Part shown: positions 2,597 through 53,775 of the stretch, piece after piece | Layout of the letters: every line of letters starts with the position of its first letter | Numbering within the stretch: position 1 is the first letter of the stretch | Source of the DNA: Nitrospinaceae bacterium | GTDB lineage: Bacteria; Nitrospinota; Nitrospinia; Nitrospinales; VA-1 | DNA length: 64,000 bases | NCBI GenBank assembly: GCA_023271875.1 | Contig: JALPWY010000001.1 | Location: 6,091-70,090, forward strand | Direction of reading: 5' to 3' | Program-made: the position numbers and the translations under genes | Notes under the pieces: model-generated | What the model was told of the DNA's origin: nothing | Database searches by the model: none | Seen by the model: only the letters and a program-made list of their open reading frames with translations

Positions 2597-3229
2597 CTAT
2601 AATTTTTCGGACTTTTCCGACCCTTGCTCTATCTGGTTTATTTTATTTGTCAACTTTTGAACTAAGACCTCATAGGAATCCTTGCGGATAATTTTAGTAA
2701 ACTGAGAGCGGTAATTGCGGATCATACTGACACCTTCAATAACAAAATCATATACCTTCCAATGCCCATTTTCTTCGATGAGCTTATAATCAACCCCAAT
2801 AGTACTGCTTCGACGAACTACCTCCGTCTTAATAAGGGCATATTTCCCCTTGATTATTTCATCAAGGTAGTTGATTTTTTCATCTCTGTAAGCTTCAAGT
2901 TTATTGGCATAGGAATTCTCAAGCAACGATTTAAATAACACAATAAATTCCTGTCGTTCCTGATCCGAGCGAGCATCCCAGTTTTTAGCAAGTGAGCGCA
3001 TCACCATTTGGCGATAGTTAAATCGCTCGTCGATGGTCTTTCGCAAAGCTGCTCTACGAGCTTGGTGATCATTCTTCATAGCCTCATCTTTGACAATTTT
3101 AATCACCTTGTCGATGGTGCTTTTTAATTGACTTTTAATTTCTGAATCTGCAAAACAGACGGTCACCATAGATAAATAAATCATCAAACCGACCACAACT
3201 AAATGCATGTAAAACCGTTGTCGTTTCAT
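2597..3229 (-). CDS. MlaC/Ttg2D-like periplasmic phospholipid-binding protein
   Basis: Signal peptide. Core resembles the toluene-tolerance Ttg2D/MlaC family (NWDARSDQERQEFIVLFKSLLENSYANKLEAY, WKVYDFVIEGVSMIRNYRSQF). Confidence 0.7.
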   Translation of the reverse strand: MKRQRFYMHLVVVGLMIYLSMVTVCFADSEIKSQLKSTIDKVIKIVKDEAMKNDHQARRAALRKTIDERFNYRQMVMRSLAKNWDARSDQERQEFIVLFKSLLENSYANKLEAYRDEKINYLDEIIKGKYALIKTEVVRRSSTIGVDYKLIEENGHWKVYDFVIEGVSMIRNYRSQFTKIIRKDSYEVLVQKLTNKINQIEQGSEKSEKL

Positions 3230-8709: not shown

Positions 8710-8771
8710 ATTTCAAAACTCGATTTTTTTTAACGTGGAGCCAACGAGTTTACTCAACTGCGGTTTCCAGT

Positions 8772-9905
8772 TCACAAAAAACTATCCAGCAAATCAAAAA
8801 ATCTATCGGCTTCGTCCTTACTGTTGTAGTAATGCGGCGAAAGTCGAACTAACCCATCACGCACGGTCAAAGACACATTGTTCTCCAGCATGTAAGTGGA
8901 AAATTGTTGCGGTTCAGCTTTCAGCTCATAAGATATGATCCCCGATCTTTCCTTTTGGACTTTCGAATTGAATATTTTAATCCCCCGTTTTTGTAGACCT
9001 TCCATCAAGTAATCTCCCTGCGATAGGACACTGGATTGAATCGAATCAATCCCTATTTCCCCCAACAGGTCAAGCGCTGCGCCCAACGCGTAAATACTCA
9101 TAGTATTAAAACTACCTTCCTCAAAGCGTTTAGCATCTGGACGAAAAGTAAAATCATAATTCATAAAATCCCATGCATCCACCACGCTATCCCATCCGAC
9201 ACTAACTGGATAAATTTTCTCTAACACGTTCTTCGAAATATAAAACCCGCCTAACCCTTCAACACTCAACATCCATTTGTGACCATCAGCGGAGAGAAAA
9301 TCAATGTTATCGCGTTTCACATCCATTTCTAAAATCCCCAAACTCTGAATAGCGTCGACGCAAAACAAAATGTTATTTTCTCTACAAAAGGCACCTATTC
9401 GATTCAAATCATTTTTAAAACCACTATTACACTCGACCGAACTAACGGACACAATACGTGTTCGTTTATCGGTTTGCTCAATCAAGTCATCGAACACTAC
9501 ACGACCATCCTTTGACTTCACCATACGTGTTTCCACTCCAAAACGCTCCAAGTTCCACCACGGATAAACGTTGGCAGGAAACTCAATGTCCGGAATCACC
9601 ACATTATCGCCTGGGTTCCAATCTAACCCGTTCGCGACAATAGAGATTCCTTCCGATGTATTTTTAACAAATGCCACTTCATCAACATCTCCATTTATTA
9701 GCCAAGCAAATTTTCCACGCACTCTTTCCACTTCCTCCATCCATTTCTTATAATTTTTTGTTCCATTCTCACAGGCATCATTAGTAAACGCGTTTACTGC
9801 ATCGCGAACCCTTCGAGGCAATGGTGAAACCTTGGCATGATCAAAAAATATCCGGGTGGCTTTAACTGGGAACTCCTGTTGCAACTGTTTTTCGTGTGGG
9901 TTCAT
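8772..9905 (-). CDS. class V (fold type I) PLP-dependent aminotransferase / cysteine desulfurase-like enzyme
   Basis: PLP-lysine context LSADGHKW. The family-typical N-terminus starts at ATG 9905 (MNPHEKQLQQEFPV...FDHAKVSPLP). The track ORF runs further upstream into the lexA-like remnant. Confidence 0.8.
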   Translation of the reverse strand: MNPHEKQLQQEFPVKATRIFFDHAKVSPLPRRVRDAVNAFTNDACENGTKNYKKWMEEVERVRGKFAWLINGDVDEVAFVKNTSEGISIVANGLDWNPGDNVVIPDIEFPANVYPWWNLERFGVETRMVKSKDGRVVFDDLIEQTDKRTRIVSVSSVECNSGFKNDLNRIGAFCRENNILFCVDAIQSLGILEMDVKRDNIDFLSADGHKWMLSVEGLGGFYISKNVLEKIYPVSVGWDSVVDAWDFMNYDFTFRPDAKRFEEGSFNTMSIYALGAALDLLGEIGIDSIQSSVLSQGDYLMEGLQKRGIKIFNSKVQKERSGIISYELKAEPQQFSTYMLENNVSLTVRDGLVRLSPHYYNSKDEADRFFDLLDSFL

Positions 9906-10149
9906 ACGCTTGTCTCGCCTATTTAAAATGTCTATAGATCCCTTACCAACGACTTCGATTGCACGGTTTCTGCTGTGATGTTTGCGGATCAGTCTTTTGC
10001 ACTCGAGATGAACTAGATGTTTATGCACTGTCGCCGAAGAACCAAGCTTGAACTGTTTCCCAATTTTAGCAATGCTTATCGCGTAAACTTCCTTGTATAT
10101 GTTTTTTCAGAAACTCATAAATTTCCTTCTGACGTTTAGTTAGAAACAT
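9906..10149 (-). pseudogene. lexA: LexA-type winged-helix DNA-binding domain remnant; frameshifted, with no S24 peptidase domain
   Basis: ATG at 10149 gives MFLTKRQKEIYEFLKK, then stops after 27 aa. A 1-nt shift in the A6 run (T6 at 10102-10107 on +) continues as ...YAISIAKIGKQFKLGSSATVHKHLVHLECKRLIRKHHSRNRAIEVV, a typical LexA N-terminal domain. That frame then runs in frame into the aminotransferase. Confidence 0.55.
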
Positions 10150-10304
10150 AAAATTTCTCAATATCTGAATGAATTAGCTGCTAGTAAAGTATTTTCACGA
10201 TAGACGAATAAAAATAAAAATCAATGCTCACATACACTTACAAGTAACAATTACAGAGGCTTTTCTCTAACTTTTTCCTAACCAATATATGCACTATTCA
10301 CAAA

Positions 10305-10661
10305 ATGAGCGTTAAATTTAAAAAGTAAAGTTATTGAACCCTATTCAGCGGTAATCATTGCACACGGACTCAACACACTTACAGTTGCCGTAATGGGATA
10401 GGAGGGGATAGGCATTCCCCACTACTCTTCTAAAGATGTTGGACCTGTGATAGATATTCCTTTCGATCACGTGATCACCGTGTGTAGTCACGCCGAACTA
10501 TCTTGTCCTGTTTTCCCGGGAAAACCCAAGTCTCTCATGTCAATTTTGATGACCCACCCAATCTTGCAAAATCTGCAAAAAGTGAAGAGGTGGCTTTATC
10601 TTACTTTCGCCGCGTGAGAGACAAAACTCGTATCTTCATAGAAACATTACCATTAAAATAA
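10305..10661 (+). pseudogene. arsC: arsenate reductase (LMW-PTP/thioredoxin-type ArsC) pseudogene
   Basis: Recognisable YSAVIIAHGLNTLTVAVMG*EGIGIP...FDHVITVCSHAELSCPVFPGK and HVNFDDPPNLAKSAKSEEVALSYFRRVRDKTRIFIETL. The N-terminal CX5R P-loop is missing, there is an in-frame TAG at 10399-10401, and a frameshift lies near 10518-10535. Confidence 0.65.
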
Positions 10662-10815
10662 TTTAAAAAATTCCTTTACCACACCGCCACATGATTCATT
10701 GATGATTTGCAAAAGTCTTTATCTTACGTTACGCTCAAAATTATAAATAAACTAATGATTCGTGTCCGTGGGTATGAGTTCAAAAAAACTGTGCCGCGTG
10801 AAAATCATTTAGCTG

Positions 10816-11979
10816 ATGAAACTTATGAGGGGATTCCTAGCGAAAAAATTCTATTCCACGTTACTGATTCCAGTTTTACATGTGGCCTCAATATCTTTTG
10901 CGGTGGACGCCTTAGCGGAGCCTTCTACCGAGAATTATCGTGATACCCTGCATGTTGGAGTGGTTGGAGATACCGGAATTGGCGAGCGGGCTTATCACCC
11001 AGGCTTTATAGCAGTAGCCACGGCTTTAAAAAATCATCGCCCCGATCTACTATTACATCTTGGAGACTTTCTTTATCAATCCAAAATATTTCCCAAAGCC
11101 TGCCCAGAGCGACACCTCCCTGAAATAAAAAAAACCCTTACTGACCCTTTCAAATTTAAATTATTTGTCCCTGGCGATAATGACCTGCCTCCAAACAAAA
11201 AAAAACCAAAAGGCTCAGGGTGTTGGGAAAAAATTGACGCGATGGACAGTACTTTTGATTCTTATCCAACATCCACCCATGAACCAAGAGCCTACGAAGG
11301 GACCATGACCATTGGCAACACTTTCTTTGCGATTCTCAATACATACCCATGGGAAGATCCAACAGCTTGGCTCGGTCCTCGAATCAAAAAAGCAAAAAAA
11401 CAAGGGTTCTGGACTATTATTGCCTTGCACGAGCCCGCCATTACCACAGCATGGTATCTTGAAAAACGAGACACGGTGTTAAAACAACTTACTGCACTTA
11501 AGCCAGACCTTGTGTTTGCAGGCAATCAACACTCTTATGAACGATTTCATCAAATTAAGGAACCCAAACAAGATGGGTCAATTCCTTTTGTATTATCTAA
11601 ATCAGGGGATTATTTAAAAGGAGATGGAACCATTTTTGTGGTTTCAGGCGGGGGTGGCGCTTATATCAAACCGTTCGCTGATCAACAAGGATTTAAAAAA
11701 CGAACCGCACCGAAGGCGGTTTTTGACGCACTCGCCAAACGCGCCCTCATGAACCATTTCTTAATTCTCGAAATAGCACAAGAAAAACTACAAGCAACAA
11801 CCTATCGAGTCTGTCTAGAAAAAAATACAAAGGACAAGAGAAATCTAAGATGGAAACCAGATAAACCTATGTGGGATTCTATTACACTAGAATGCGAAGG
11901 ACAAAAAACGGGTATCACCGCCTCCGACCAATTTCAAATCCAACTCAAAAAAAGGCCTACACAAAAAAGAATTAACTAA
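10816..11979 (+). CDS. secreted calcineurin-like metallophosphoesterase
   Basis: Signal peptide. Metallophosphoesterase motifs GDTGIG, LGDFLY, GDND, LHEP, GNQHSYERF. Confidence 0.75.
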   Translation: MKLMRGFLAKKFYSTLLIPVLHVASISFAVDALAEPSTENYRDTLHVGVVGDTGIGERAYHPGFIAVATALKNHRPDLLLHLGDFLYQSKIFPKACPERHLPEIKKTLTDPFKFKLFVPGDNDLPPNKKKPKGSGCWEKIDAMDSTFDSYPTSTHEPRAYEGTMTIGNTFFAILNTYPWEDPTAWLGPRIKKAKKQGFWTIIALHEPAITTAWYLEKRDTVLKQLTALKPDLVFAGNQHSYERFHQIKEPKQDGSIPFVLSKSGDYLKGDGTIFVVSGGGGAYIKPFADQQGFKKRTAPKAVFDALAKRALMNHFLILEIAQEKLQATTYRVCLEKNTKDKRNLRWKPDKPMWDSITLECEGQKTGITASDQFQIQLKKRPTQKRIN

Positions 11980-29707: not shown

Positions 29708-30724
29708 TCAACCTTCCGCGTATGAAAACATTTTTTCTACGCAACTTAGAGCATTCTTTTGAACCTTAGAATCAAGTTCAATGACATTATAGGAAGTTGG
29801 TTTTTCAAGTGCATTAAGAATATTCTCTAAAGAATTAGCCTTCATGTATCGGCAGGTAGTGCAGGTGCCTACAAATTGCTTGTCTGGAAATTCTGATTCC
29901 AAAATTCCCGTCAATCCACATTCTGTTAGTATAAAAAAAGTTTTTCGGTCAGATTCACGCACATAACTTAGCATACCACTAGTTGATCCTACGTAGTCAG
30001 CCTTGTCTACCACATCAGGTCTACATTCTGGATGTGCCAAAATTTCTACCCCCGAGAAATTCTTCCTCACTTGGTCAACGCTTTCTGGTTGGTACTCTTC
30101 GTGGACATAGCAGGTTCCGTCATACAACTCAATGTCTTTTCGCACTCCATTTTTCTTTAAATATTTTTTTATATTTTCGCCCATCAACCGATCTGGTAAA
30201 AAATAAATCTGATCATTTTCAATCCGCTCTATTACCTTATATACATTGGATGAGGTAACGCATGTATCACATAGTGCTTTTACTTCAGCCGTAGTATTTA
30301 TATAACAAACAAATGTGTGGTGCGGAAATTTTGCACGCAAATTTTTAACATCTTCAGCAGTGATTCCATCTGCTAAAGTACAACCTCCATCAGGATTTGG
30401 GTCTAGCACTACCTTGTCTGGATTTAGAATTTTAGCTGTCTCCGCCATGAAACGAACCGATGCAAAAACAATCACTTCGGCATTTGACTCCCGTGCCTTT
30501 TTAGCTAAACCGTACGAATCACCCATATGATCCGCTACACCGTACAGGATTTGGGGTGCAACATAATTGTGCGCCAAAATGATGGCATTTTTCTCCTGTT
30601 TGAGTGTCTCGATGCGTTGAATTATCGTTAAGAGCTCCTCACAACTCTGTTCAGTAAATCGACAAAACGGATTCCCCACTTGAATATCTTTAAGCTTGGC
30701 GTAAAGTTGTTGAGAGGTAATCAT
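29708..30724 (-). CDS. nadA: quinolinate synthase
   Basis: ILAHNYVAPQILYGVADHMGDSYGLA and conserved Cys positions typical of NadA. The likely start is ATG 30724 (MITSQQLYAKL), because the longer track ORF overlaps the HIT gene. Confidence 0.9.
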   Translation of the reverse strand: MITSQQLYAKLKDIQVGNPFCRFTEQSCEELLTIIQRIETLKQEKNAIILAHNYVAPQILYGVADHMGDSYGLAKKARESNAEVIVFASVRFMAETAKILNPDKVVLDPNPDGGCTLADGITAEDVKNLRAKFPHHTFVCYINTTAEVKALCDTCVTSSNVYKVIERIENDQIYFLPDRLMGENIKKYLKKNGVRKDIELYDGTCYVHEEYQPESVDQVRKNFSGVEILAHPECRPDVVDKADYVGSTSGMLSYVRESDRKTFFILTECGLTGILESEFPDKQFVGTCTTCRYMKANSLENILNALEKPTSYNVIELDSKVQKNALSCVEKMFSYAEG

Positions 30725-30729
30725 TGGGA

Positions 30730-31074
30730 TTAACCTGGCGGCCACTTTAAAGAGCGCCCACCCAAAAGGTGATAATGAATATGAAAAACCGACTGTCCGG
30801 CTTCCACTCCACAATTAACTACTATTCGGAATCCAGTCGTATCTAATCCCTTTTGCTTTGCGAGCTCGTTAGCCACAGAATAAATTGAGCCTATGAGCGC
30901 GTGATCATCTTCTTTGATTTCTAATATAGTGGAGAAATGTTTTTTAGGGATAATTAGAAAATGGATTGGAGCCTGCGGATTAATATCCTTAATGGCAAAA
31001 ATGTTACCATCATCATAAACTTTTTCTGCAGGGAGATCCCCCTTATCAATCATGCAAAACAAACATTCACTCAT
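30730..31074 (-). CDS. HIT-family (HinT-like) nucleotide hydrolase
   Basis: Histidine triad HIHYHLLGG and C-terminal LKWPPG. Confidence 0.85.
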   Translation of the reverse strand: MSECLFCMIDKGDLPAEKVYDDGNIFAIKDINPQAPIHFLIIPKKHFSTILEIKEDDHALIGSIYSVANELAKQKGLDTTGFRIVVNCGVEAGQSVFHIHYHLLGGRSLKWPPG

Positions 31075-31111: not shown

Positions 31112-32584
31112 CTAGTAGGTTCCTTTATAGGGAGTTGATTCTTGGCCTCCGTGTTTCTCCATATTTTGAAGGTAGTTTCGTATTTCCTCTTTGTAGGAAA
31201 TAAAAGGATCAAGCATTAAAAATGGTGCTTCATTCCTGCCAAACCGAAATCCTATCCAATCTATAAGATATAAAGACTCACTATTCACATCTACAAGAGT
31301 CTTGACTAACTCGCCTCTCCCATCAGCACGCGTACCCCTTGGAGGAATAGTCTTTGCATACTCTATAGCACCATCGTTTGTTTTTCTTACAGCTTCTCCT
31401 GTGCCTTCCAGACTCCAGTAAAGGCCACTGTTCTTATTAATATTATGATATTCCAAGTCAAGACTCTTCAGCCATGGATCATGCCAATCTAAGTTTTCTT
31501 CTTTCCTAAATTCGGAGAGCATCCAATATTTTGTCGCCCAATCAACACGGCCTATTAACGCTTCAGGTCCTTTAGACAAATCATTCAACACCGAATCCCA
31601 CTCATGTATAATCCAGTCCGTCTCACGATTCATTCCAGCTAGGTGCTTCCTCGCAGTTTGCATCATATCTATTTGTAACTCGAGTGCCGTTGTGTGGCGT
31701 CCATTTCTTAAAACTAATTCCCATTTAAATTCTTGATCTCGTGATATCGCCCGCATGGTCTCCACTGATTCGGCCAGTATCCAGTCAGGATTGGCAATAT
31801 CCTGCTCCATGAGCTCAAGCATAAGAGTGGTGGTTCCCATTTTCATAGCGGTTGCAAACTCGCTCATATTTGAGTCACCAACTAATAAATGGATCCTTCG
31901 GTACTTACTGGGGTCTGCCAGCGGTTCATCGCGAGTGTTGACTATAGAGCGGTTATACTGAACCCATCGGTAGAACTCATTTGGGATATGATCTGCCCTT
32001 TGAGAAATCTGAAAATCAACATTAGCTTCTGCTTCCTCGACAAAGTTGCCCTCCCAGTCGCGAAAAGGATGAGGGTTACACGCGCCAATTCTCCCTGCGC
32101 CGCAATAAATTTGTCGGGTAACTAAAAATGCTGACAGCAATTTCAGGTTTTCGCGTTCATCAAAGGGAAACCCTCGGCCAACCAAATAATTCTCATGACA
32201 ACCAAACGTCGCGTTAGTTTCAAGATCGACATTGTTTTTAATAATGCCTATTGAGTCTCTCCAACCGAGCTCTTCCACCGCATCTTGAATCAGTGTATCC
32301 CCCGCGCGATCATAGGTAACGAGATCGGTCAGAGTAAAGCATTCTGGCGAAGCGTATTCCAAGTGACCCATATCTAGATATATACGCCCGGCATTTAATA
32401 AGAAACCGCCGTTTTCAGGTGGTTCATCGTTGGCTCGGTAGTGCTGATCGAGAACCCCAAGTCTTGATGTTTTAAAGATGTGGTCTTTGATTCTAATTGC
32501 CGCTTCCACCGGATCAAGCTTAAATTCATTATCTTTGATCAGTAGGCCATATTCAGTTTCGATACCATAGATTCGATTTCTCAC
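31112..32584 (-). CDS. pafA: PafA-like modifier ligase (Pup/UBact ligase family)
   Basis: GIETEYG N-terminus, FLLNAGRIYLDMGHLEYASPEC, INTRDEPLAD, YRRIHLLVGDSNMSE. It lacks the ~30-residue insertion seen in the upstream paralog. GTG start 2 nt after the prcA stop. Confidence 0.8.
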   Translation of the reverse strand: MRNRIYGIETEYGLLIKDNEFKLDPVEAAIRIKDHIFKTSRLGVLDQHYRANDEPPENGGFLLNAGRIYLDMGHLEYASPECFTLTDLVTYDRAGDTLIQDAVEELGWRDSIGIIKNNVDLETNATFGCHENYLVGRGFPFDERENLKLLSAFLVTRQIYCGAGRIGACNPHPFRDWEGNFVEEAEANVDFQISQRADHIPNEFYRWVQYNRSIVNTRDEPLADPSKYRRIHLLVGDSNMSEFATAMKMGTTTLMLELMEQDIANPDWILAESVETMRAISRDQEFKWELVLRNGRHTTALELQIDMMQTARKHLAGMNRETDWIIHEWDSVLNDLSKGPEALIGRVDWATKYWMLSEFRKEENLDWHDPWLKSLDLEYHNINKNSGLYWSLEGTGEAVRKTNDGAIEYAKTIPPRGTRADGRGELVKTLVDVNSESLYLIDWIGFRFGRNEAPFLMLDPFISYKEEIRNYLQNMEKHGGQESTPYKGTY

Positions 32585-32586
32585 AA

Positions 32587-33381
32587 CTATTGAATCACCT
32601 CTAATTTTAAAGCAGAAATTTCACTTTCACTCAATGTGCGATAAAGACACTTGCGTCCCGTATTATTGTTGAGAACTGCCGCTTCAAGGCTCCAACTGTC
32701 AAATGCTTCTTTTAGATCAGTTGGAATGTCTTCCGTTTCCTCCTCAGCCTGATCATTGTCTTCAACTGATGAATTTGCATCTTCTTCTAGTTTAGGTTTC
32801 TTACGGCCTTCCTCCCACATACGCAACGCTGATTGAATTGATTTATCTAAATCCAATAACATAAAATCGGTGCTTTCTATTGCTTTTTGTATTCGTTCTC
32901 TCACTTTACTATCACCCGCAATAACGGTTCCTTTTTTAAATTTTTCCCAGTAACCGTCATAGTTGACTCGAAAAAATTCGGCACTCCCTTCATGGTTTAT
33001 TTCAGCAAGTAACATTTGAATCAGATAAGGGGCCCGTTGAATTTCTTCGAAGTTTTGCTTGAGTGCCGGTGCGAGTCCAAATTGTAGAAGCCTTCCAATG
33101 GTTACGTCCTCTGATGAACGGTTGAATCCTTCAGCATGTGCCATATCCAGAAGTGTCATACGCAAACGTTCGACATCTGCAGGGTGGCCTAACCCACCTA
33201 GAGCAATACGATCATAAATTTCAAAAATTTTTCCAGGTTGCGGAGAAAACCCGATAATAAGCGCCCCTTCATTATAAGGAACCCCTATAACTGGCTGTCC
33301 CTTAAACAGCTTTTCACGAACATAACTATGGCGCGTAGAAATCGCTTCCATCCAACGAAAAGGCTCTTCAAACATTTTCAA
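32587..33381 (-). CDS. prcA: 20S proteasome alpha subunit
   Basis: Alignable by eye to actinobacterial PrcA (…IFEIYDRIALGGLGHPADVERLR…YLIQMLLAEI…FFRVNYDG). The start is TTG 33381 or ATG 33375, immediately at the prcB stop. Confidence 0.85.
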   Translation of the reverse strand: MKMFEEPFRWMEAISTRHSYVREKLFKGQPVIGVPYNEGALIIGFSPQPGKIFEIYDRIALGGLGHPADVERLRMTLLDMAHAEGFNRSSEDVTIGRLLQFGLAPALKQNFEEIQRAPYLIQMLLAEINHEGSAEFFRVNYDGYWEKFKKGTVIAGDSKVRERIQKAIESTDFMLLDLDKSIQSALRMWEEGRKKPKLEEDANSSVEDNDQAEEETEDIPTDLKEAFDSWSLEAAVLNNNTGRKCLYRTLSESEISALKLEVIQ

Positions 33382-34178
33382 CTCCTGCTCATAGAAGATT
33401 CGTAAATAGACTCCATATGATCGTCTGAAATAAACTGATACCCATCTTTAGTAATCTTCGCAATGATAGGGTAAAGTTTGTCTTCGGGCCGGGCTTGCCC
33501 TGTGGCTGAATCAAATTGAGCAGCTGTCTGTAGTAGACGTATTGATAAAGAGGTCGCTTCTTCCTCTGACCTTTCTCCTAATGGGCTACTACCCCAAAGA
33601 TTCTCGTGTTCTAAAACACCCTTTATCATAGGAGATCCAGACCCTGTTGCGACATAAGTCAGTATCTGAAATTCAGCTCCCAGCATATCGTAAAAATAAA
33701 GAAATACTTTTTTCTGTTCTTTATCATAAATAGCAAAAAGAGGGCTCACCCCACCCACACCCTGCAAAGCCATCCCCACATTATCTTTGAGCAGTTTTGA
33801 CAAAGCACGGACTTTGCCTTCCGTGCTCATGGTCCGCAATTGTGAACGCCTATAATATTCAAAGTTATGTGATAGGATGCGTGCCATTTCGAATGCTGTA
33901 GCCGGAACCCCTGCGATAGCCATTAATGAAAAATCATCTATGGGGATTACTTTATCGCAACGATCATACATGATCGCATTTCCAGCAGTAGCTCTGCGAT
34001 CACCCGCCACAATTATTCCATCTTTATAATGGAAAGCCAGGACTGTGGTTCCTTGAGGGATTTCTAAAGCCTTATTTTCAAAAATACCTGAAGACACTTT
34101 CTGTGGATAGTGACCTGATTTTTTAAGGAGCTCGAGAAAGTCGCCAGAAGTGTGGATTCGTTCAAGGTTTTCTGTCAT
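33378..34178 (-). CDS. prcB: 20S proteasome beta subunit with propeptide
   Basis: Propeptide followed by the catalytic-Thr context PQG/TTVLAFHYKDGIIVAGDRRAT. ATG overlaps the stop of the small modifier ORF (ATGA). Confidence 0.9.
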   Translation of the reverse strand: MTENLERIHTSGDFLELLKKSGHYPQKVSSGIFENKALEIPQGTTVLAFHYKDGIIVAGDRRATAGNAIMYDRCDKVIPIDDFSLMAIAGVPATAFEMARILSHNFEYYRRSQLRTMSTEGKVRALSKLLKDNVGMALQGVGGVSPLFAIYDKEQKKVFLYFYDMLGAEFQILTYVATGSGSPMIKGVLEHENLWGSSPLGERSEEEATSLSIRLLQTAAQFDSATGQARPEDKLYPIIAKITKDGYQFISDDHMESIYESSMSRS

Positions 34179-34345
34179 TGGCCGGTTCGTTGTTTGTAGT
34201 TTTCTGATTGTTTAGGGTCAACCCGTTTCATTCGCTTGAGAATATCATCACGACCCGGTCGTTCAACATTCGGACTAGATGGTCCTGATTCCTTGCGGTC
34301 GGGAGTAGGATCCTTTTTTTCTTCTCTTCTTAATGGATCGTTCAT
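34175..34345 (-). CDS. 56-aa UBact/Pup-type prokaryotic ubiquitin-like modifier (not in the ORF track)
   Basis: Read by hand: MNDPLRREEKKDPTPDRKESGPSSPNVERPGRDDILKRMKRVDPKQSENYKQRTGQ*. ATGA overlaps at both ends (dop-like stop, prcB start). C-terminal Gly-Gln. Occupies the position of pup in the canonical mpa-dop-pup-prcBA order. Confidence 0.75.
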   Translation of the reverse strand: MNDPLRREEKKDPTPDRKESGPSSPNVERPGRDDILKRMKRVDPKQSENYKQRTGQ

Positions 34346-35829
34346 AACCATGGGAATTGCTCCTTTTTGGAATTAATCAAATGTTCTACGTCAGCCGAGC
34401 TGACAACTTGAGAAAGATCTATAAAGTCACCGCCCGTAAACTCGATACCCGTCCAGTGAATATTTTTTATCTGATCCTCGCTGTTTGTAACGGCCAAGCC
34501 ACGCACCAGAGCCCTCGTATCTTCAGGTGGCTCTTTTATAGCGCGCTGAATTTCATCTTCAGAAAACATGGAGTATACATCACCTGCTTGCTCAAGTCCT
34601 CGGTACAAGCCTCTTTCTGGATCAAGATTATGATACTCTAAATCTAGGCTTTTTATCCAAGGATCATCCCAACCCACCCCTTCTGATTCAGTAAAACGGG
34701 TAAAAATATCTTTTTTTATTGCCCAATCAATTCGATCAGCTAGCTTTTCAGGGTGGTGTTTGAGTTCATTCAAAGTACGTGCCCATTCGCGGATAATCCA
34801 ATCCCTCTCTTTGCATTGCCCTGATAGATTTTTATCTGCTGCGTCAAGATAGAATTCTTGTATTTCAAGTGATGTTATCGTTTTGCCATTCCTACATTTC
34901 AAAGCAATAGTCCCTGTCTGGTCTCGAGAAATATTTTTAATATCATCAACTGGATTCTCTAGGGCCAAAGGCGATTCTAATTTATCTTCTCCAATTAGAG
35001 TCAAGATCAATCGAGTTGTTCCAACCTTCAAAGCAGTTGCATAAGGGGACATATTTGCATCACCTAGAATAAGGTGAAGTCGACGGTACTTGTCTTGTGT
35101 CGCATGGGGTTCATCCCGAGTATTAATAATAGGTCGTTGGGTCATCGTCTCTATACTCAATACCGTTTCTATAAAATCGGACCGCTGTGCAAGCTGGAGT
35201 CCACTAAATGAATTATCATCTTTAAGTTCAGTTCCGACCTTGCCAGCTCCTGCGTATAGTTGGCGAGTTATAAGAAACGGAACCAAACGTTCTACCCAAT
35301 GCTCAAAGGGAAGTCGACGTGATATGAGATAATTATCATGCGTACCGTAGCTATGCCCTAGATAGTCGGTGTTATTCTTGAATACGCAAACCCTACCAAC
35401 CTTGTCGTCTTGATTTCTTAGGTGAGCACACTCGGAAACAATGCGTTCACCGGCCAGATCATGCACCACTAATTGAAAAACACTGCCACATTCGGGGGTG
35501 CTATATTCTGGATGCGTGTGGTCATTATAAAACCTTGCTCCGTTTTCAAGTACCCGGTCGCGTTTCATCTCCCAATAACTGTAGGGACGTTTACGATCCT
35601 CAACGCAAAAAGCATCTTCTTCCTCGTCCTGTGCCAGAGAAGGCACATTAAACCCTCGCATATCCTGATGAGAACGTTCTCGAGAATAAGCCCAATTACA
35701 AAATTCACTTTTCATCTCACAGCGACGCACTAGGGCCATTGACTCCTCTACGACATCGTAACTTTCTACCTCATTGCGCACGATCCCATATTCTGTTTCT
35801 AGGCCTAACAAAGGAACTGAAGAACTCAT
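34342..35829 (-). CDS. dop: Dop-like deamidase/depupylase homolog
   Basis: LETEYG, NGARFYNDHTHPEYSTPEC, INTRDEPHAT, YRRLHLILGDANMS. It carries an extra ~30 residues between ETEYG and NGAR (WAYSRERSHQDMRGFNVPS...), resembling the Dop-specific loop. It lies directly upstream of the modifier gene. Confidence 0.8.
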   Translation of the reverse strand: MSSSVPLLGLETEYGIVRNEVESYDVVEESMALVRRCEMKSEFCNWAYSRERSHQDMRGFNVPSLAQDEEEDAFCVEDRKRPYSYWEMKRDRVLENGARFYNDHTHPEYSTPECGSVFQLVVHDLAGERIVSECAHLRNQDDKVGRVCVFKNNTDYLGHSYGTHDNYLISRRLPFEHWVERLVPFLITRQLYAGAGKVGTELKDDNSFSGLQLAQRSDFIETVLSIETMTQRPIINTRDEPHATQDKYRRLHLILGDANMSPYATALKVGTTRLILTLIGEDKLESPLALENPVDDIKNISRDQTGTIALKCRNGKTITSLEIQEFYLDAADKNLSGQCKERDWIIREWARTLNELKHHPEKLADRIDWAIKKDIFTRFTESEGVGWDDPWIKSLDLEYHNLDPERGLYRGLEQAGDVYSMFSEDEIQRAIKEPPEDTRALVRGLAVTNSEDQIKNIHWTGIEFTGGDFIDLSQVVSSADVEHLINSKKEQFPWL

Positions 35830-37445
35830 ATGATCGATCGGTTGAGAGTTTCAGCGGCAGCCTGGTCAGACTGGTTGGGTCGACGCACCCTTACCACATC
35901 GCGCGGATCTAGGTCAAGCAATTGAAGCCAATCCTCCAGATTTGATTCTGCGGGAAGCAAGTTGCCATCCGTAAACTCAGTTTTTAGACATTCTGTTAAA
36001 TCTTTGGACAAAATTTTTAACTCTTTTCCATCGATGGCTCTTTCAATTGCTTTTTCTTTGGTTCTTTTGACTATCCCCTCAATAATCGCACCAGAAATAA
36101 AGTCCTTCCAGTAAAGATTTTTGAGTTTACCAGTGCGTAGGGTAAGAACCAAAACCTTCTGTCGAGAGCTCTTCCTAAATAGGGCATCGAGAAATGGCTG
36201 AGTCATTTGATCAAGGTTTTCGTGCTCTCGAGGTAAATTAGGTTTAAGATAAACCCTAAGTATCGCATTGCAATCTTCACGATTGGGACGACCCACTTTT
36301 ATCTTTCGATCGATTCGGCCAGGTCTCAAGATGGCAGGATCTATCAGGTCGGGCCGGTTAGTGGCGAGAATAACAACAGCTTCTCGAAGCGATTGGATTC
36401 CATCCATCTCAGCACAGAACATAGGTACCAGCGTATTGCTGATATTATTTCCACGCATGGCCTGCCTTGTTCCAAGAATAGATTCTGCTTCATCAATAAA
36501 AATAAAAGGCACTTGGCCCTTTTCCTTATAATCACGCGCCTTTTTAAAAATTTCCCTTACTTTACGCTCCGACTCCCCAAGCCACATGTTAAGAATTTCG
36601 GGACCTTTGACATGGATAAATCGACCTTCGAGATCTTGATTAGATTCTTTTTCCTTAAGTTGACGAATGATGTCTGAAAGAATAGCTCTGCCAATGAGGG
36701 TTTTACCACAACCCGGAGGTCCGTAAAATAAAAAACCCTTTGGCAATTGGTATTCCATGGTTTTAAGAATATCCTTATGTAAAATAGGGTACTCGATAAC
36801 CTTGCGCACTTCCTCAATAACTTTAGATTGCCCTCCTACCTCGGACCAGTCGATTTGAGCCAAATCGTCTTCGATAACAACGCCAGACGTTCTCTTAGGT
36901 AGCCGAGCCAAAATAACCCGTTGGTTCGGGTCGAGAATGACCTCATCACCCACCTTCAATGTCTCTGTTTCCAGATCGGGGTGATTCGAGGCTAAGGTTT
37001 CGCTGTTGGCAGCTTGCCCGGTTATCAACCACTGTCCATCTGTTAATCGCGTGGTGATGCGAGCAATCGGCCCTTGCTCAGGCTTAGGCAACTTAGCTAT
37101 AGCAACAAACCCCTCGTTGAGCGCAACTTGATCACCAGGCTGAAGAGTTTCTTCTTCAAGAATTTCTGGAGAGACAGCAGCCTGATACTCTGTACCTCCA
37201 ACTACTAAACGATAAAGACCTCCCTTTCCCAGTCCCAACACAGTTCCAATACGGTGGGCAGGGGACTTTAACTTAGCAACGGTTTCCTCGAGATTTTTAA
37301 TTTTTAAAGCATATTGCTGTGATACCTGTTGCGCCTGAAATAATGCGTCTCGCAAATCAAAAATCTTCTCTTGGAGCTTAGGATTATCAGCCGTTTCACC
37401 CAAAAGTTGGTCAATCAGTTCGATAATATGGGGTTGGTCACCCAT
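35826..37445 (-). CDS. mpa: proteasome-associated AAA+ ATPase (Mpa/ARC family)
   Basis: N-terminal coiled coil, OB-like region, Walker A GPPGCGKTLIG, Walker B FIFIDEAES. ATGA overlap with the dop-like gene. Confidence 0.9.
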   Translation of the reverse strand: MGDQPHIIELIDQLLGETADNPKLQEKIFDLRDALFQAQQVSQQYALKIKNLEETVAKLKSPAHRIGTVLGLGKGGLYRLVVGGTEYQAAVSPEILEEETLQPGDQVALNEGFVAIAKLPKPEQGPIARITTRLTDGQWLITGQAANSETLASNHPDLETETLKVGDEVILDPNQRVILARLPKRTSGVVIEDDLAQIDWSEVGGQSKVIEEVRKVIEYPILHKDILKTMEYQLPKGFLFYGPPGCGKTLIGRAILSDIIRQLKEKESNQDLEGRFIHVKGPEILNMWLGESERKVREIFKKARDYKEKGQVPFIFIDEAESILGTRQAMRGNNISNTLVPMFCAEMDGIQSLREAVVILATNRPDLIDPAILRPGRIDRKIKVGRPNREDCNAILRVYLKPNLPREHENLDQMTQPFLDALFRKSSRQKVLVLTLRTGKLKNLYWKDFISGAIIEGIVKRTKEKAIERAIDGKELKILSKDLTECLKTEFTDGNLLPAESNLEDWLQLLDLDPRDVVRVRRPNQSDQAAAETLNRSII

Positions 37446-37484: not shown

Positions 37485-37514
37485 ATTCTAAATCGAAAAA
37501 AAATTGCACGTCAA
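37485..37514 (-). promoter_or_regulatory. candidate sigma70 promoter of the proteasome operon (TTGACG-N18-TAGAAT)
   Basis: On the minus strand, -35 TTGACG lies at 37514-37509 and -10 TAGAAT at 37490-37485, about 40 nt upstream of the mpa ATG. Confidence 0.35.
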
Positions 37515-37680: not shown

Positions 37681-37749
37681 TTAGAAAGTCGATTTCATCA
37701 AAGTAGGATCGACGCAAAGTAATTGCTGCTTTACTTTTTTACCTTTTTT

Positions 37750-39075
37750 ATGGACCACATTAGGCCTTCAGCCAGTATCGATAAGTGCATCTTAAGCTTC
37801 AGCCATGATCGGTACACTTCACGAAAAAAGGCAAACGCTGCCGCTATTGCAAAAGCCGAACGTGAAATTGCATCTAACAGCAATGGTGTTAGCCACCTTA
37901 TCCTGCGAGCAACTGATGACAAAATAGACCATCTAAAGTTTCTCTTCCTTATCAACGGTATTCCTGTCATGTGTTACGCGCTAGGGAACCTACTAATTTC
38001 CAGCCTCAAAGAAATCGTCATCATAGGTTCCGAAGAAGTGGAGCAAGTTGCCACTAATTTTTTAGAAACAGTGGGGACGCAAGGGAAAAAAGTATCGTTT
38101 GTCAGAGAAGACTCAAATAAGTTAAACCTTTTTAACACTATGCAGTTAGGAAAACACCGGTTGAATATTGAGCCAAATGAATTGATTTTATTCCAACCTG
38201 GCGACCTACCATTCATGTTCGATATTGAAGAAATCCTGAACGATAGCGACATTCAAAATTACAATTTGATTCTTTGGCTTAACTCCAGACAAATGATGTT
38301 CCCGAATCACCAGCATAATCCAGACAGCGAATTTGTTCGGCGTAACTATCACTACCGCGCCCTTTGTAAAGAAACAAACGAACTACATGAAGTCAAAGAA
38401 CCCAACATTTATCCAATCAACCTGTCCGCAGTAGATTCAGACATCATTGACCATCTGCACTCAACAAGAAAAGATGGAAATATAATTAAGGCCGGTATCC
38501 GAAAAGCACTTTCTATGCCATCAAGAATATTAAAACTACTTCCCATAATGGCACACCACGCACTACACTTCAGGTCTGATTTAAAGCAATTTCGCAAGGA
38601 AGATAAATACCTGTTTGGAATGCAAAGAGATAATTTTGATCGCGCTGTTTCGGTTTTATTAGATACTGAATTCATAACCAAATTCCATAGCGCCCCAGCA
38701 TTTGTTTCTGATGTAGACGCGCTGGAAGATTGGGAAGACTTTGAATCCCTTACACATTATGCCAATCTTAAACATGGGGAGGAAGGCCTAGCACATATTC
38801 ATCCTTTTGGTGAAGAATTACTCCGCTTTCGTGAAGAACAAATGCCTAGCCTGAAAACCAAAATAGATATGTACAATAATTTCCCAGCCTACATCAATTC
38901 ATTTTACCAATCCCTCAAAATGAACCGTGTGCCTTTCCCGAATGGAAGTCGATACGTCCCACATAAGACTAACCATGAAAAAAACGGGTCTGCTCAAAAA
39001 ACAAAACATGCTTTTTCTTGGTATTCCAATAAATGCAACGCCGTTAAACTAGGGCGTGTTAGTCAAATTATTTAA
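37750..39075 (+). CDS. MobA-like/GT-A-fold nucleotidyltransferase-family protein with long C-terminal extension (hypothetical)
   Basis: INGIPVMCYALGNLL...EIVIIGSEE, LFQPGDLPFMF and VSDVDALEDWEDF resemble NTP_transf_3-type motifs, but the canonical G-x-G-x-R loop is not evident. Likely start ATG 37750. Confidence 0.45.
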   Translation: MDHIRPSASIDKCILSFSHDRYTSRKKANAAAIAKAEREIASNSNGVSHLILRATDDKIDHLKFLFLINGIPVMCYALGNLLISSLKEIVIIGSEEVEQVATNFLETVGTQGKKVSFVREDSNKLNLFNTMQLGKHRLNIEPNELILFQPGDLPFMFDIEEILNDSDIQNYNLILWLNSRQMMFPNHQHNPDSEFVRRNYHYRALCKETNELHEVKEPNIYPINLSAVDSDIIDHLHSTRKDGNIIKAGIRKALSMPSRILKLLPIMAHHALHFRSDLKQFRKEDKYLFGMQRDNFDRAVSVLLDTEFITKFHSAPAFVSDVDALEDWEDFESLTHYANLKHGEEGLAHIHPFGEELLRFREEQMPSLKTKIDMYNNFPAYINSFYQSLKMNRVPFPNGSRYVPHKTNHEKNGSAQKTKHAFSWYSNKCNAVKLGRVSQII

Positions 39076-39083
39076 ATAGTTTT

Positions 39084-40004
39084 ATGGCAATCACTGAAAT
39101 ACGAAAATTAGATCTGTTGGCTCGATTTTCTCAAACAGAATTTTTTTCCCATGGCAGTAAACTCAACTATGCCAAGCTAGAACGGTTTATACTCATTTCC
39201 TTTTTACTTCATTTTTCGGTTGTGATCTTTGGTTTAGTTGCTCCTTTAAATACTAAAAAACCTCTAACGCCACCACCAATTAAAGTAAAATATGTCAATA
39301 CCCAAACACCCGTACCCCTTAAACAAAAACAAACACCCGCTGACTCCCTAAAACCAAAAATAAGTCAGAAGAAAAAAACAAAACCACCTGGGTTGCTAGC
39401 AAGAACGAGCCACAAGACATTTGTAAAAAAACAATATCCTAAACAAAAAAAACACCGCCAAATAAAAACGACCACTTCAAAAACCCAGAACATTCCTAGC
39501 ATCATTCACCAATCAAGCCCCCAAGTTACGAAAAAGAAAAAAGGGGAGAACCAACAAAAAGTACATCCTGTCCCTTCCAAATTTATGGGCTCAAAAGGAA
39601 CTCTGACTATGCTTGATGAGTTGAACCAAGAAAAATACGCCCCAGAAAACCCACAAGTTGAAGAAAAAGAAGAACTGGACGAGGATGAACCCATTTCTCT
39701 TGACACTAAAGAAGCAAAATATGTTTCATATTTCAGTCGCATTAAACAACAAATTCAGCGTGTCTGGGTTTACCCATCCCAAGGAATAAAGAGAACCCTT
39801 AGTGGAGAACTCACGCTTAAATTTGAAATTTCGAAGGATGGAAACCTTCTTGGCCTACGATTGATTAATAGCTCAGGCTCCAACATCCTTGATGCTAATG
39901 CCATTAAGGCAGTGAGGGGGGCCGCGCCCTACTATCCATTTCCAAAAACAATCACCAAAAAAAAGCTTTCTATACTTGCAACATTTGTATACAACTCCAA
40001 ATAA
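39084..40004 (+). CDS. TonB-family protein (TM anchor, Lys/Pro-rich spacer, TonB C-terminal domain)
   Basis: TM helix FILISFLLHFSVVIFGLVAPL. K/P/Q-rich linker. C-terminus GELTLKFEISKDGNLLGLRLINSSGSNILDANAIKAVRGAAPYYPFP. Confidence 0.7.
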   Translation: MAITEIRKLDLLARFSQTEFFSHGSKLNYAKLERFILISFLLHFSVVIFGLVAPLNTKKPLTPPPIKVKYVNTQTPVPLKQKQTPADSLKPKISQKKKTKPPGLLARTSHKTFVKKQYPKQKKHRQIKTTTSKTQNIPSIIHQSSPQVTKKKKGENQQKVHPVPSKFMGSKGTLTMLDELNQEKYAPENPQVEEKEELDEDEPISLDTKEAKYVSYFSRIKQQIQRVWVYPSQGIKRTLSGELTLKFEISKDGNLLGLRLINSSGSNILDANAIKAVRGAAPYYPFPKTITKKKLSILATFVYNSK

Positions 40005-40270: not shown

Positions 40271-41500
40271 ATGTACAAAATTGATTCTAATATATCTGTT
40301 TCAATGGACTCAGAAAATACCTGCGTAGTCCTTCCCTTATCTCGCCCTCCTTCGAACTGGTCGATGGTTGACTGGTATTGGAAAAAAATTTGCGGCATTC
40401 CGTTTTTATTGAGAAATATTTTCAGTCTTCAGCGATCCGGGGTCAACTCGCTAATTATTTATAGCAATACTGAGAATACTGCTCTTCACAAAAAGCTTTT
40501 CAAGGAAAATAAATTAACCCTTAAGTTAACTTTTGAAACCAATATTACGGAAGTGGTTAGAGTTACTAAAAATTACCCCACCTTGGTTTTAAATGGCGGA
40601 GCGCTTCATACAAAGCAAGAAATTGAGTCTGGCATGAACTTCACAAATCAACCTGATGAAGCATTGGTCTATCCTATTGATCGCACAATCATGACCGAAA
40701 CCCTTAACCAAATAATCATGGGTAATAAGGTTTCCTTGACTCAATCATCCAATTATCAAGAATCCCTCATTAACTTTTTACCGGGGAAAAATGACTCCCA
40801 TATAAACAAGCCAGAGGATTTTCTTATTCAACACAAAAACCTTTTACAAAGCAGTGGACTGAGCAATGATAGCTTTATGGATAAAACCATCACCCGATTT
40901 TTCTCTCGTCAACTCACAAGGTTTTTTTTAGAAACTCCTCTCAGCCCTAACATGATCACTATTTTGAGTCTTTTTATCGGCTTAATTTCAGCAAAATTTT
41001 TTCTTCAAGGTACTTATGAAAATAGCATAATTGGCGCTGCGCTCCTTTTGCTCTCTGCATGGATTGACTGCACAGACGGAGAAGTGGCCCGACTTAAATT
41101 TTCTGAATCAAAAATTGGGGGGAAGTTGGATATTCTTTGCGATAACCTGGTTCATTTTTCAGTATTTTTTGCGATTGGCATGGGGTTATATAAATCCACC
41201 GAGAATAATATTTTTATATTTTTTGGCGCACTTGCTGTGTTTGGAAGTTTTGTTTCCTTTCTCATTCTTAGTTCATCAATTATCGATAAAAAAGAAAAGG
41301 TTTCTGCAAATGCAGTTGATCTAAAAAAGAAAAATACGCTAACTGATAACATGGCAAACAGGGATTTTATTTATTTTCTTTTTTTTATGTCACTGATTGG
41401 TAGGGTTGATATTTTTATATGCATTACTGCTTTTGGCTCGAATATTTTTGCAGCCTATCTTGCCTACTCTAAAATCAAGCCCCTCTTGCATGCAAGTTGA
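40271..41500 (+). CDS. fusion of a degenerate nucleotidyltransferase-like domain and a CDP-alcohol phosphatidyltransferase membrane domain (IPCT/DIPPS-like architecture)
   Basis: CDP-OH-P motif DCTDGEVARLKFSESKIGGKLDILCDNLVH (D-x2-DG-x2-AR...G-x3-D-x3-D) within a multi-TM C-terminal half. The N-terminal ~190 aa resemble an NTP-transferase fold (CGIPFLLRNIFSLQRSGVNSLIIY). Confidence 0.7.
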   Translation: MYKIDSNISVSMDSENTCVVLPLSRPPSNWSMVDWYWKKICGIPFLLRNIFSLQRSGVNSLIIYSNTENTALHKKLFKENKLTLKLTFETNITEVVRVTKNYPTLVLNGGALHTKQEIESGMNFTNQPDEALVYPIDRTIMTETLNQIIMGNKVSLTQSSNYQESLINFLPGKNDSHINKPEDFLIQHKNLLQSSGLSNDSFMDKTITRFFSRQLTRFFLETPLSPNMITILSLFIGLISAKFFLQGTYENSIIGAALLLLSAWIDCTDGEVARLKFSESKIGGKLDILCDNLVHFSVFFAIGMGLYKSTENNIFIFFGALAVFGSFVSFLILSSSIIDKKEKVSANAVDLKKKNTLTDNMANRDFIYFLFFMSLIGRVDIFICITAFGSNIFAAYLAYSKIKPLLHAS

Positions 41501-52425: not shown

Positions 52426-53775
52426 ATGAAAGAAGCAAAAGATATTGATGACAGCCTTGAATTTTTACGTTCGTTTGAAAAAAACGCAAACAATACTGAG
52501 CTTGGAGAACTCATCCTCCAAAGACTCGACCATCATAATAAAAGCCTCAACTTACAAGGGAACCGGTTTACAGAAACTGAATTTCAAAGTCTATTTTCAT
52601 TCGAATCTCTAAAGCATCTAAAATCAATTGACCTTAGTGAAACAGGGATGAATTCTAAGGCAATTAAACATCTTTGTTCATCTAAGTGGCTACACCACAT
52701 AACATCGCTACCATTAGCCAATAATAACTTAGACGATGAAGGAATATTTTTATTATCCAAAACAAACTGCCTCCCAAAGCTTACGTCTCTAGATTTATCA
52801 AGCAATGAGATTGGGGCATTAGGAGCAAAAGTTCTATCTCTTTCAAAATCACTTAATAGGATTTGCAGCCTAAATATTTCCTACAATCGGATTGAACCCT
52901 TAGGAGTCGACTCTTTAGCAAATTCTGATTTTGGACGACAATTAAAGTTTTTGCAACTTCGCGATACTTGCCTTGGAAACGAAGGAATGAAAAGTTTCTC
53001 TTCCTTCCGTTTAAACGAACTAGAATCACTTGATCTTTCAGACAATGCAATTTCTGATGCAGGATTAGAAACGTTAGCAACATCTAACTCGTTTCCAAAT
53101 CTAAAGAAATTAGTGCTGAACAATAATCACATAGGAGATGATGGTATTTATGCCCTATCCCAATCGAATATGTTTTGCAATCTTGAATCGTTGTTTCTTG
53201 CTAATAACGATTTAACAACTGATAGTGCAATTTCAATATCAGAATCACGTACTCTTACCCAGTTAAAAAGTCTCGACATTAACAATAATGATATTCGTGC
53301 TGAAGGAACAAAAGCGTTATCTGAATCGCCTAATTTAAAATCTATCGAATATCTGGACTTGGGAGAAAATAGATTAGGAACCGAAGGGGCAAAGGCTCTT
53401 GCTCAAAGTCCTAATATGAAAACATTAAAATTTTTGCGCTTAAATAATAATGACATTAAAGATGCGGGGATATCTGAAATGGCTAAATCAAAATATTTCA
53501 CTTCTCTCGAAAATCTTTTTTTAGAAAATGAAAATTGGATTCATTCTGAAGGGGCAAAATCTCTTGCAGTTTCAACTTCTTTCCCGTTGTTACGAATACT
53601 TGTACTTACTTTGAACGCAATAGGAGATGAAGGTGCTTTTCATTTAGCTGGAGAAAATAATTTAAATACTTTGGAGCAACTCAACGTCGCTGGAAATAAA
53701 ATTAGCCCAAGAGGCGAAGATGCCCTTAGAAACTCTCCTTATCTTCAGCACCTTAAAAATCTAGAACTGGTCTAG
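52426..53775 (+). CDS. ribonuclease-inhibitor (RNI)-type leucine-rich repeat protein
   Basis: About 14 tandem ~28-aa repeats of the form L..L.L..N.IGDEGA..LA.S....L (e.g. LKKLVLNNNHIGDDGIYALSQSNMFCN). No signal peptide. Confidence 0.8.
   Translation: MKEAKDIDDSLEFLRSFEKNANNTELGELILQRLDHHNKSLNLQGNRFTETEFQSLFSFESLKHLKSIDLSETGMNSKAIKHLCSSKWLHHITSLPLANNNLDDEGIFLLSKTNCLPKLTSLDLSSNEIGALGAKVLSLSKSLNRICSLNISYNRIEPLGVDSLANSDFGRQLKFLQLRDTCLGNEGMKSFSSFRLNELESLDLSDNAISDAGLETLATSNSFPNLKKLVLNNNHIGDDGIYALSQSNMFCNLESLFLANNDLTTDSAISISESRTLTQLKSLDINNNDIRAEGTKALSESPNLKSIEYLDLGENRLGTEGAKALAQSPNMKTLKFLRLNNNDIKDAGISEMAKSKYFTSLENLFLENENWIHSEGAKSLAVSTSFPLLRILVLTLNAIGDEGAFHLAGENNLNTLEQLNVAGNKISPRGEDALRNSPYLQHLKNLELV

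Follow-up and report, generated by a model that had tools for sequence, protein, structure and literature searches.

Which proteasome tagging system is encoded by six genes arranged in tandem on the minus strand (37445..31112) of a 64,000-nucleotide (nt) stretch of Nitrospinaceae DNA (assembly GCA_023271875.1, contig JALPWY010000001.1, positions 6,091 to 70,090; the whole stretch is hereafter the window), and is that system an ordinary one for its host? Bacterial proteasomes with ubiquitin-like tagging are rare, and the Nitrospinota are a major group of marine nitrite oxidisers. An initial annotation, made from the letters of the sequence, had read the six genes as a complete proteasome and modifier-conjugation pathway and had placed it in a Gram-negative proteasome lineage; this placement held, as the modifier passes the UBact models and the host belongs to the Nitrospinota. 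We conclude that the region is very probably the UBact-proteasome locus of Candidatus Nitromaritima (Nitrospinota), which corresponds in Gram-negative bacteria to the Pup-proteasome system of actinobacteria, and that it is an already known and annotated system, ordinary for its lineage.

Characterization of the modifier

Judged by its sequence, the modifier belongs to the UBact family rather than to Pup. It passed the Pfam model PF20513 (72.3 bits, curated cut-off 27.8) and the NCBIfam equivalog NF033388 (69.7 bits, cut-off 35), while no Pup profile match to it was obtained and UBact was the only Pfam family to match at E values up to 10. Its C-terminus (...KQRTGQ) is TGQ, not the GG[Q/E] of Pup. 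UBact proteins are recognized by a length of about 55-65 amino acids (aa), an R-[T/S]-G-[E/Q] ending and their genomic setting, and the window modifier fits on all three counts, being 58 aa long with such an ending and encoded between the Dop-like gene and prcB, in a locus with prcA and a PafA-like gene.

Scanning 1.84 billion cluster representatives for UBact relatives gave 100 clusters at 50% identity, 89 of which had the endings RTGQ, RTGE, RSGQ or RSGE, with Q a commoner last residue than E; the QRTGQ ending was present in 118 of the 120 closest homologues of the modifier. A single-sequence UBact search found Nitrospinota relatives only, and the other phyla were reached with a profile built from diverse members, which matched 3811 clusters at 90% identity. 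The NCBI name "ubiquitin-like protein UBact" is carried by many of them, from Verrucomicrobiota, Methylomirabilota, Nitrospiria, Omnitrophica and Nitrospinaceae. Database proteins 98% identical to the window modifier exist, and its relatives at 76-88% identity are named UBact. We expect UBact to be disordered and predict that it is a protein modifier attached to lysines.

Organization of the six-gene locus

All six genes proposed in the initial annotation, in the order ARC, Dop, modifier, PrcB, PrcA and PafA, were present and co-directional over the span given above when read from the sequence, and their family assignments by Pfam and NCBIfam profile searches were far above chance (Table 1).

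Table 1. Positions of the six genes of the locus and of other features discussed in the text (window coordinates).
Feature	Position	Strand	Details
ARC/Mpa-like AAA ATPase	35826..37445	-	539 aa
Dop-like enzyme	34342..35829	-	495 aa; Pup_ligase 8e-153
UBact modifier	34175..34351	-	58 aa; UBact profile 2.7e-20
PrcB, 20S proteasome beta subunit	33378..34178	-	266 aa; Proteasome 4.6e-30
PrcA, 20S proteasome alpha subunit	32587..33375 (alternative start 33381)	-	262 aa from conserved ATG
PafA-like enzyme	31112..32584	-	490 aa, GTG start; Pup_ligase 4.3e-128
HIT-family hydrolase	30730..31074	-	HIT 1.4e-23
nadA, quinolinate synthase	29708..30724	-	NadA 1.4e-105; NF006878 344.9 bits, cut-off 294
Promoter-like site	37485..37514	-	TTGACG, 18-nt spacer, TAGAAT; 10/12 consensus matches
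MlaC	2597..3229		diderm marker
SPOR lipoprotein	7456..8709		diderm marker
TonB_C	39084..40004		diderm marker
450-aa open reading frame	37723..39075	+	divergent from the operon
409-aa protein	40271..41500	+	CDP-alcohol phosphatidyltransferase domain
Leucine-rich-repeat protein	52426..53775	+	449 aa; LRR_6 1.3e-46

The junctions that the initial annotation had listed (ATGA, ATGA, ATGA, TTGA or TGA-aa-ATG, and TAG-tt-GTG) all agreed with direct reading of the sequence. ARC/Dop and modifier/PrcB are both ATGA overlaps. The Dop/modifier junction, ATGGTTATGA, contains two candidate ATGs, of which the first results in a 10-nt overlap and the second in ATGA, and PrcB/PrcA is AGGAGTTGAAAATG. The TTG at the PrcB/PrcA junction was not kept in relatives (TTAA in loci L004 and L007), whereas the PrcA ATG, located 2 nt past the PrcB stop with AGGAG upstream, was kept; therefore, PrcA most likely starts at 33375. 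PrcA/PafA is TAG-tt-GTG. The overlaps are conserved within Nitrospinaceae and stop/start overlaps are also present in other UBact loci, which argues for coupled expression. Since the genes overlap or nearly abut, we consider that the six most likely form one transcription and translation unit.

Dop-like and PafA-like paralogs

The upstream of the two Pup_ligase-family paralogs is the probable Dop and the downstream one the probable PafA, as suggested by profile ranking, structural alignment and diagnostic residues. The upstream protein scored 421.5 bits with the NCBIfam Dop model (TIGR03688, equivalog cut-off 492.3, which it did not reach) and 366.5 bits with the PafA model. It aligned over its full length to Acidothermus Dop (4B0R, 2.2e-90), Dop-loop region included, and the insertion of about 30 residues that aligns with the 4B0R Dop-loop was found in this paralog only. 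Its catalytic Asp motif is YNDHTHPEYSTPE (Dop type D-H-x-H-P-E), and at the positions that discriminate Dop from PafA (Table 1 of the mutational study PMC7947786) it has the Dop-type residue at 10 of 19 and the PafA-type residue at 1. Thus the Dop-loop, the catalytic Asp motif and Dop-specific residues, the marks by which Dop is recognized, were all found.

The downstream protein scored 336.7 bits with the PafA model (TIGR03686) and 312.5 bits with the Dop model, a lead of 24 bits, and lay below the TIGR03686 equivalog cut-off (551.3 bits). It aligned end to end with C. glutamicum PafA (4B0T, 9.2e-71), has no Dop-loop in the alignment, and carries PafA-type residues at 8 or 9 of 22 positions (A29, F37, F61, L70, G73, A78, H199, D442) and Dop-type residues at 2. 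Its catalytic motif is YLDMGHLE, compared with YLDVGSHPE in PafA. Degenerate ligase active-site residues, an outcome that the initial annotation had considered, were not seen in either paralog: both keep the catalytic Asp and intact nucleotide-binding motifs, with GxETEYG, YG(T/C)H(D/E)NYL, NTRDEP and RR(L/I)H..GD.NM retained relative to 4B0R and 4B0T.

The PafAs of the UBact lineage (window, L008, L010-L013) have a common signature, YxDMGHLE, NTRDEPLA and the alpha-loop QRADxIxNxFFxWVQxNR, in which NTRDEPLA contains Leu where every other compared Dop/PafA sequence has His. We predict that the Dop-like enzyme converts the terminal Gln of UBact to Glu by deamidation and strips UBact from substrates, and that the PafA-like enzyme is an ATP-dependent UBact-protein ligase. 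We also observed the motifs DWII(R/H)EW and DPW(I/L)KSLDLEYHN in both window paralogs; they were absent from the two actinobacterial structure sequences compared.

ARC ATPase and 20S core

In ARC, the N-terminal region is helical and is followed by two OB domains and a single AAA module (Pfam Prot_ATP_ID_OB_N 1.8e-13 and Prot_ATP_ID_OB_C 1.1e-07, PF17758 and PF16450 for the OB pair; AAA, PF00004, 8.7e-32). These two OB domains and one AAA module are the architecture expected of Mpa/ARC, and the protein scored 368.4 bits with TIGR03689 (below its cut-off of 504.75), residues 44-521 aligning to residues 79-585 of M. tuberculosis Mpa. Walker A (GPPGCGKT), Walker B (FIFIDEAE) and the aromatic pore loop (MWLG) were all present in the translation. 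The C-terminus, ...ETLNRSII (coding 35826..35870), is conserved in six Nitrospinaceae loci (L001-L006), and the ARCs of three other UBact lineages (L009, L010, L012) end in SAMV, TSMI and GNMI.

PrcB has a 43-residue propeptide before the processing site QG|TTVLAF (HG|TTIVAL in Rhodococcus) and aligned with the Rhodococcus beta subunit 2H6J (9.3e-29). It passed PF00227 (105.1 bits, cut-off 22.4) and gave 163.9 bits with TIGR03690, below the cut-off of 191.9. Loss of the catalytic Thr, also raised as a possibility by the initial annotation, is contradicted by the retention of Thr1, Asp17 (GDRRAT) and Lys33 (CDKV, VEKV in Rhodococcus). PrcA is divergent in sequence: it matched PF00227 at 2.8e-06 (27.6 bits, cut-off 22.4) and TIGR03691 at 1.3e-16 (60.8 bits, below the cut-off of 139.05), and its best solved relatives were the Rhodococcus and M. 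tuberculosis alpha subunits (about 1e-10 to 1e-11). Its C-terminal part contains the acidic stretch EEDANSSVEDNDQAEEETEDIPTDLKE, which accounts for a length of 262 aa compared with 237-258 aa in the other sampled UBact lineages.

Host assignment and selection

A non-actinobacterial host, as proposed in the initial annotation, agrees with the DNA: 8.9 kb of the window is 96.7% identical to a contig (L001) of a Candidatus Nitromaritima (Nitrospinota) metagenome-assembled genome (MAG), and a position of the contig inside Actinobacteria is thereby contradicted. The Dop-like protein is found at 97% identity in two Candidatus Nitromaritima genomes and at 84-93% in other Nitrospinaceae/Nitrospinota MAGs. 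G+C is about 40% throughout the window, the locus being equal to its flanks. The neighbourhood is syntenic across seven Nitrospinaceae loci, in the order TonB-like gene and 450-aa open reading frame (ORF), operon, HIT, nadA, fumC and rpoD-like gene.

Purifying selection is strong on all six genes. The ratio of non-synonymous to synonymous substitution (dN/dS) was 0.04-0.13 for the five larger genes when compared with L005 (about 80% DNA identity), and 0 for UBact, which had no non-synonymous change relative to L005 at 40% of synonymous sites differing.

Comparison with other UBact loci and known systems

We compared six further UBact loci (L008-L013), four of them annotated as Verrucomicrobiales, Methylomirabilota, Omnitrophica and Nitrospiria. 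The order Dop-UBact-PrcB-PrcA-PafA was constant, except that L012 has three extra genes before PafA. ARC is directly upstream of this core in L009, L010 and L012, as in Nitrospinaceae, and is not adjacent to it in L008, L011 and L013. Gene overlaps, often of 4 nt, occur in the Verrucomicrobiales, Methylomirabilota and Omnitrophica loci and in one more of the six, and in every locus examined except L002, UBact is directly flanked by Dop and PrcB with overlapping stop/start codons. The initial annotation had regarded the joining of the whole pathway into one coupled unit as a contrast with actinobacteria, in which pafA usually lies apart. The coupling is real here and the contrast fits the literature, where actinobacterial pafA is located downstream near pafBC, sometimes separated by unrelated ORFs (PMC3511204, PMC8223512); but the same order recurs in other lineages, so that the coupled unit is the standard UBact locus and no peculiarity of the window. 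The three extra L012 genes (7677..10996, between PrcA and PafA) encode a 220-aa ORF, an AAA plus TPR protein and a TPR protein, and may be accessory factors.

The UBact family and its locus in Gram-negative bacteria were reportedly named by Lehmann, Udasin, Livneh & Ciechanover in 2017 (BBRC 483:946). That 2017 UBact paper of Lehmann et al. is cited in passages of PMC5751360 and PMC12751074. According to passages of PMC2588565 and of PMC3511204, the latter citing De Mot 2007, proteasome and tagging loci outside the actinobacteria have been on record since 2007-2008. Dop and PafA homologues in Nitrospinae were noted as well (PMC7947786). Nothing essential in the window differs from the UBact-proteasome system, with which it shares a modifier of one family ending in R[T/S]G[E/Q], the order Dop-UBact-PrcB-PrcA-PafA with ARC upstream, and a host that is a diderm and not an actinobacterium; nearly identical Nitrospinaceae MAG proteins already carry the NCBI name UBact. 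The window differs from other UBact loci in its 37-nt link to HIT-nadA, its PrcA, which the acidic stretch lengthens by about 16-24 residues relative to other lineages, and the residue preceding Thr1 of PrcB, which is Gly where others have Ala, L013 also having Gly.

The actinobacterial Pup-proteasome system (M. tuberculosis and relatives) has the same six families, the same gene order and conserved catalytic residues, with the same predicted chemistry, namely Gln deamidation followed by ATP-dependent isopeptide ligation via a gamma-glutamyl phosphate. In contrast to it, the window has a modifier that is not detectably Pup and ends in TGQ rather than GGQ, a pafA joined into the operon (in actinobacteria it is downstream of unrelated genes; PMC3511204, PMC8223512), an ARC without the GQYL tail, a PafA with YxDMGHLE, NTRDEPLA and a different alpha-loop, and no pafBC adjacent to the locus. 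The archaeal PAN-20S system with SAMP likewise has an OB-domain AAA ATPase feeding a Thr1 20S core and a small lysine-attached tag. However, the window tag would be a disordered peptide joined by a ligase with a predicted glutamine-synthetase fold, whereas SAMP is a beta-grasp protein with E1-like activation, and PAN carries an HbYX tail that the window ARC does not have.

Alternative explanations

The proteins of the locus belong to the same domain families as the Pup system, and horizontal transfer of pupylation genes from actinobacteria, with Nitrospinae included, has been proposed (PMC7947786, PMC3511204), so we asked whether the locus is an ordinary actinobacterial Pup-proteasome locus, either on an actinobacterial contig or recently transferred from an actinobacterium. 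We regard this as scarcely credible: the modifier is matched by the UBact models but by no Pup profile and ends in TGQ instead of GGQ/GGE, the five partner proteins score under the actinobacterial equivalog cut-offs, the PafA, Dop and ARC signatures are common to other sampled UBact loci, and the 8.9 kb with 96.7% identity to a Nitrospinota MAG includes the neighbouring genes. The G+C of about 40% also equals that of the flanks, and the stretch is syntenic in the seven Nitrospinaceae loci. Recent transfer in particular is ruled out. A different explanation accepts the UBact identity and holds that tagging serves mainly for reversible regulation without involvement of the proteasome, the 20S core being fed by other routes. 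Some actinobacteria indeed keep pupylation without a proteasome (PMC3511204), three of the six UBact loci sampled outside Nitrospinaceae do not have ARC beside the core, and ARC is without a GQYL/HbYX docking tail. We nevertheless consider it unlikely, since UBact is flanked by Dop and PrcB with overlapping codons in every locus except the chimeric L002, purifying selection acts on PrcB and PrcA just as it does on the tagging genes, and the tight gene coupling argues for stoichiometric co-expression and a common function.

The remaining alternative concerns the extent of the operon, which might comprise eight genes with HIT and NadA as functional members, for example linking nucleotide/NAD metabolism to tagging. 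Reading of the sequence bore out the earlier report of a HIT gene 37 nt downstream on the same strand followed by nadA. The 37-nt PafA/HIT spacer of the window has no terminator-like hairpin, nadA most likely starts at ATG 30724, 5 nt past the HIT stop, and HIT-nadA is kept downstream of PafA in the Nitrospinaceae loci L001, L005 and L007. The spacer is also 37 nt in L001. In L005 and L007, however, it is AT-rich and measures 218 and 128 nt, enough to hold a promoter of its own; HIT was not called beside PafA in L008, L011 and L013, the three non-Nitrospinaceae loci extending past PafA; and the arrangement is conserved only in relatives so close (80-97% nucleotide identity) that synteny by itself would account for it. 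Among the sampled loci, the HIT-nadA adjacency is thus confined to Nitrospinaceae. The co-transcription with HIT-nadA suggested by the initial annotation is weakened by the 128-218 nt spacers and by the lack of a HIT call beside PafA in those three loci, although read-through into HIT-nadA may occur in this genus. We find an eight-gene functional unit distinctly unlikely, and presume that HIT and nadA are neighbouring housekeeping genes, probably outside the UBact system.

Several observations weigh against assigning the region to a working UBact-proteasome system, or against parts of that assignment. All five non-UBact proteins were below the actinobacterial NCBIfam equivalog cut-offs. The alpha-loop of PafA contacts targets, and that of the PafA-like protein fits neither PafA nor Dop (nine positions, except His199). 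In a four-sequence distance quartet, which set both paralogs of the window against Acidothermus Dop and C. glutamicum PafA as reconstructed from their alignments, 251 of 1000 bootstraps supported Dop/PafA orthology and 746 lineage-specific pairing. Because four long branches are undecisive, the paralog roles were assigned from the Dop-loop, the residues that tell the two enzymes apart and the hidden Markov model ranking, and with an ambiguous quartet and paralogs 39% identical to each other they are probable rather than proven. The penultimate aromatic residue of GQYL/HbYX was absent from the ARC C-terminus in all four UBact lineages sampled, while Mpa docks on the 20S core via its C-terminal GQYL (PMC8223512). 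Scanning for promoters and terminators yielded hits no more numerous than those in shuffled sequence, so that the promoter-like site, which precedes the ARC start codon by about 40 nt and falls within the 277 nt between ARC and the divergent gene at 37723, is a candidate only. Finally, no biochemical demonstration for UBact, lysine attachment included, was found in the open-access literature.

Predicted mechanism and significance

We predict the working of the UBact-proteasome locus step by step from homology with the Pup system (PMC3511204, PMC7947786). The six genes would be transcribed as one unit, and a candidate promoter is located in the 277-nt gap upstream of ARC. UBact would be made with a C-terminal Gln, which the Dop-like enzyme would deamidate to Glu; the PafA-like ligase, with ATP, would then phosphorylate the gamma-carboxylate of this Glu and join it to a target lysine. 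Hexameric ARC would bind the disordered UBact tag via its N-terminal region, unfold the substrate and thread it into the PrcA/PrcB 20S core, whose Thr1 sites would degrade it, and the Dop-like enzyme would also remove or recycle the UBact tag.

The ARC tail and PafA signature differences of the UBact lineage may be new. From the ARC endings one might suppose that UBact-lineage ATPases engage the 20S core in a manner unlike Mpa, PAN and the Rpt subunits; the PafA signature and alpha-loop, for their part, could reflect a different target recognition. If these readings of ARC docking and of the PafA signature are true, the Gram-negative system would be a mechanistically distinct branch and not a copy of the Pup system, a proposal that we put forward as rather doubtful. 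In the literature that we found, the Gram-negative UBact branch is described only by bioinformatics. As a clean, intact and strongly conserved Nitrospinota example, the locus might be used as a template for reconstituting the system in a heterologous host. The genomic finding itself adds nothing beyond curated databases, and its residual value lies in UBact biochemistry and in the two signature differences.

Neighbouring genes

The initial annotation had drawn on MlaC-like, TonB-like and SPOR genes as diderm markers; MlaC, SPOR and TonB_C domains were indeed found in the window (Table 1), and these genes fit a diderm host. The 450-aa ORF divergent from the operon had no Pfam or NCBIfam match, and it lies beside the TonB-like gene at 78-98% identity in L001-L006.

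The locus L002 (Candidatus Nitromaritima SCGC AAA288-L16, AQTY01000020; 9650..10000) is collinear with the window up to the UBact stop (about 34170), past which it jumps to window position 51182 inside smc on the opposite strand, and PrcB, PrcA and PafA are missing. Proteasome loss in this single-cell genome was considered and rejected, as all MAG relatives keep PrcB and PrcA and the contig jumps into smc. We take L002 for a probable amplification chimera; a genuine inversion of 17 kb, which would disrupt smc, is the less likely reading.

In the 409-aa protein, the CDP-alcohol phosphatidyltransferase domain is confined to the C-terminal half, and the N-terminal residues (about 220) had no family match. 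Downstream of smc, the window encodes a protein that consists nearly entirely of leucine-rich repeats, which is unusual for a free-living marine bacterium.

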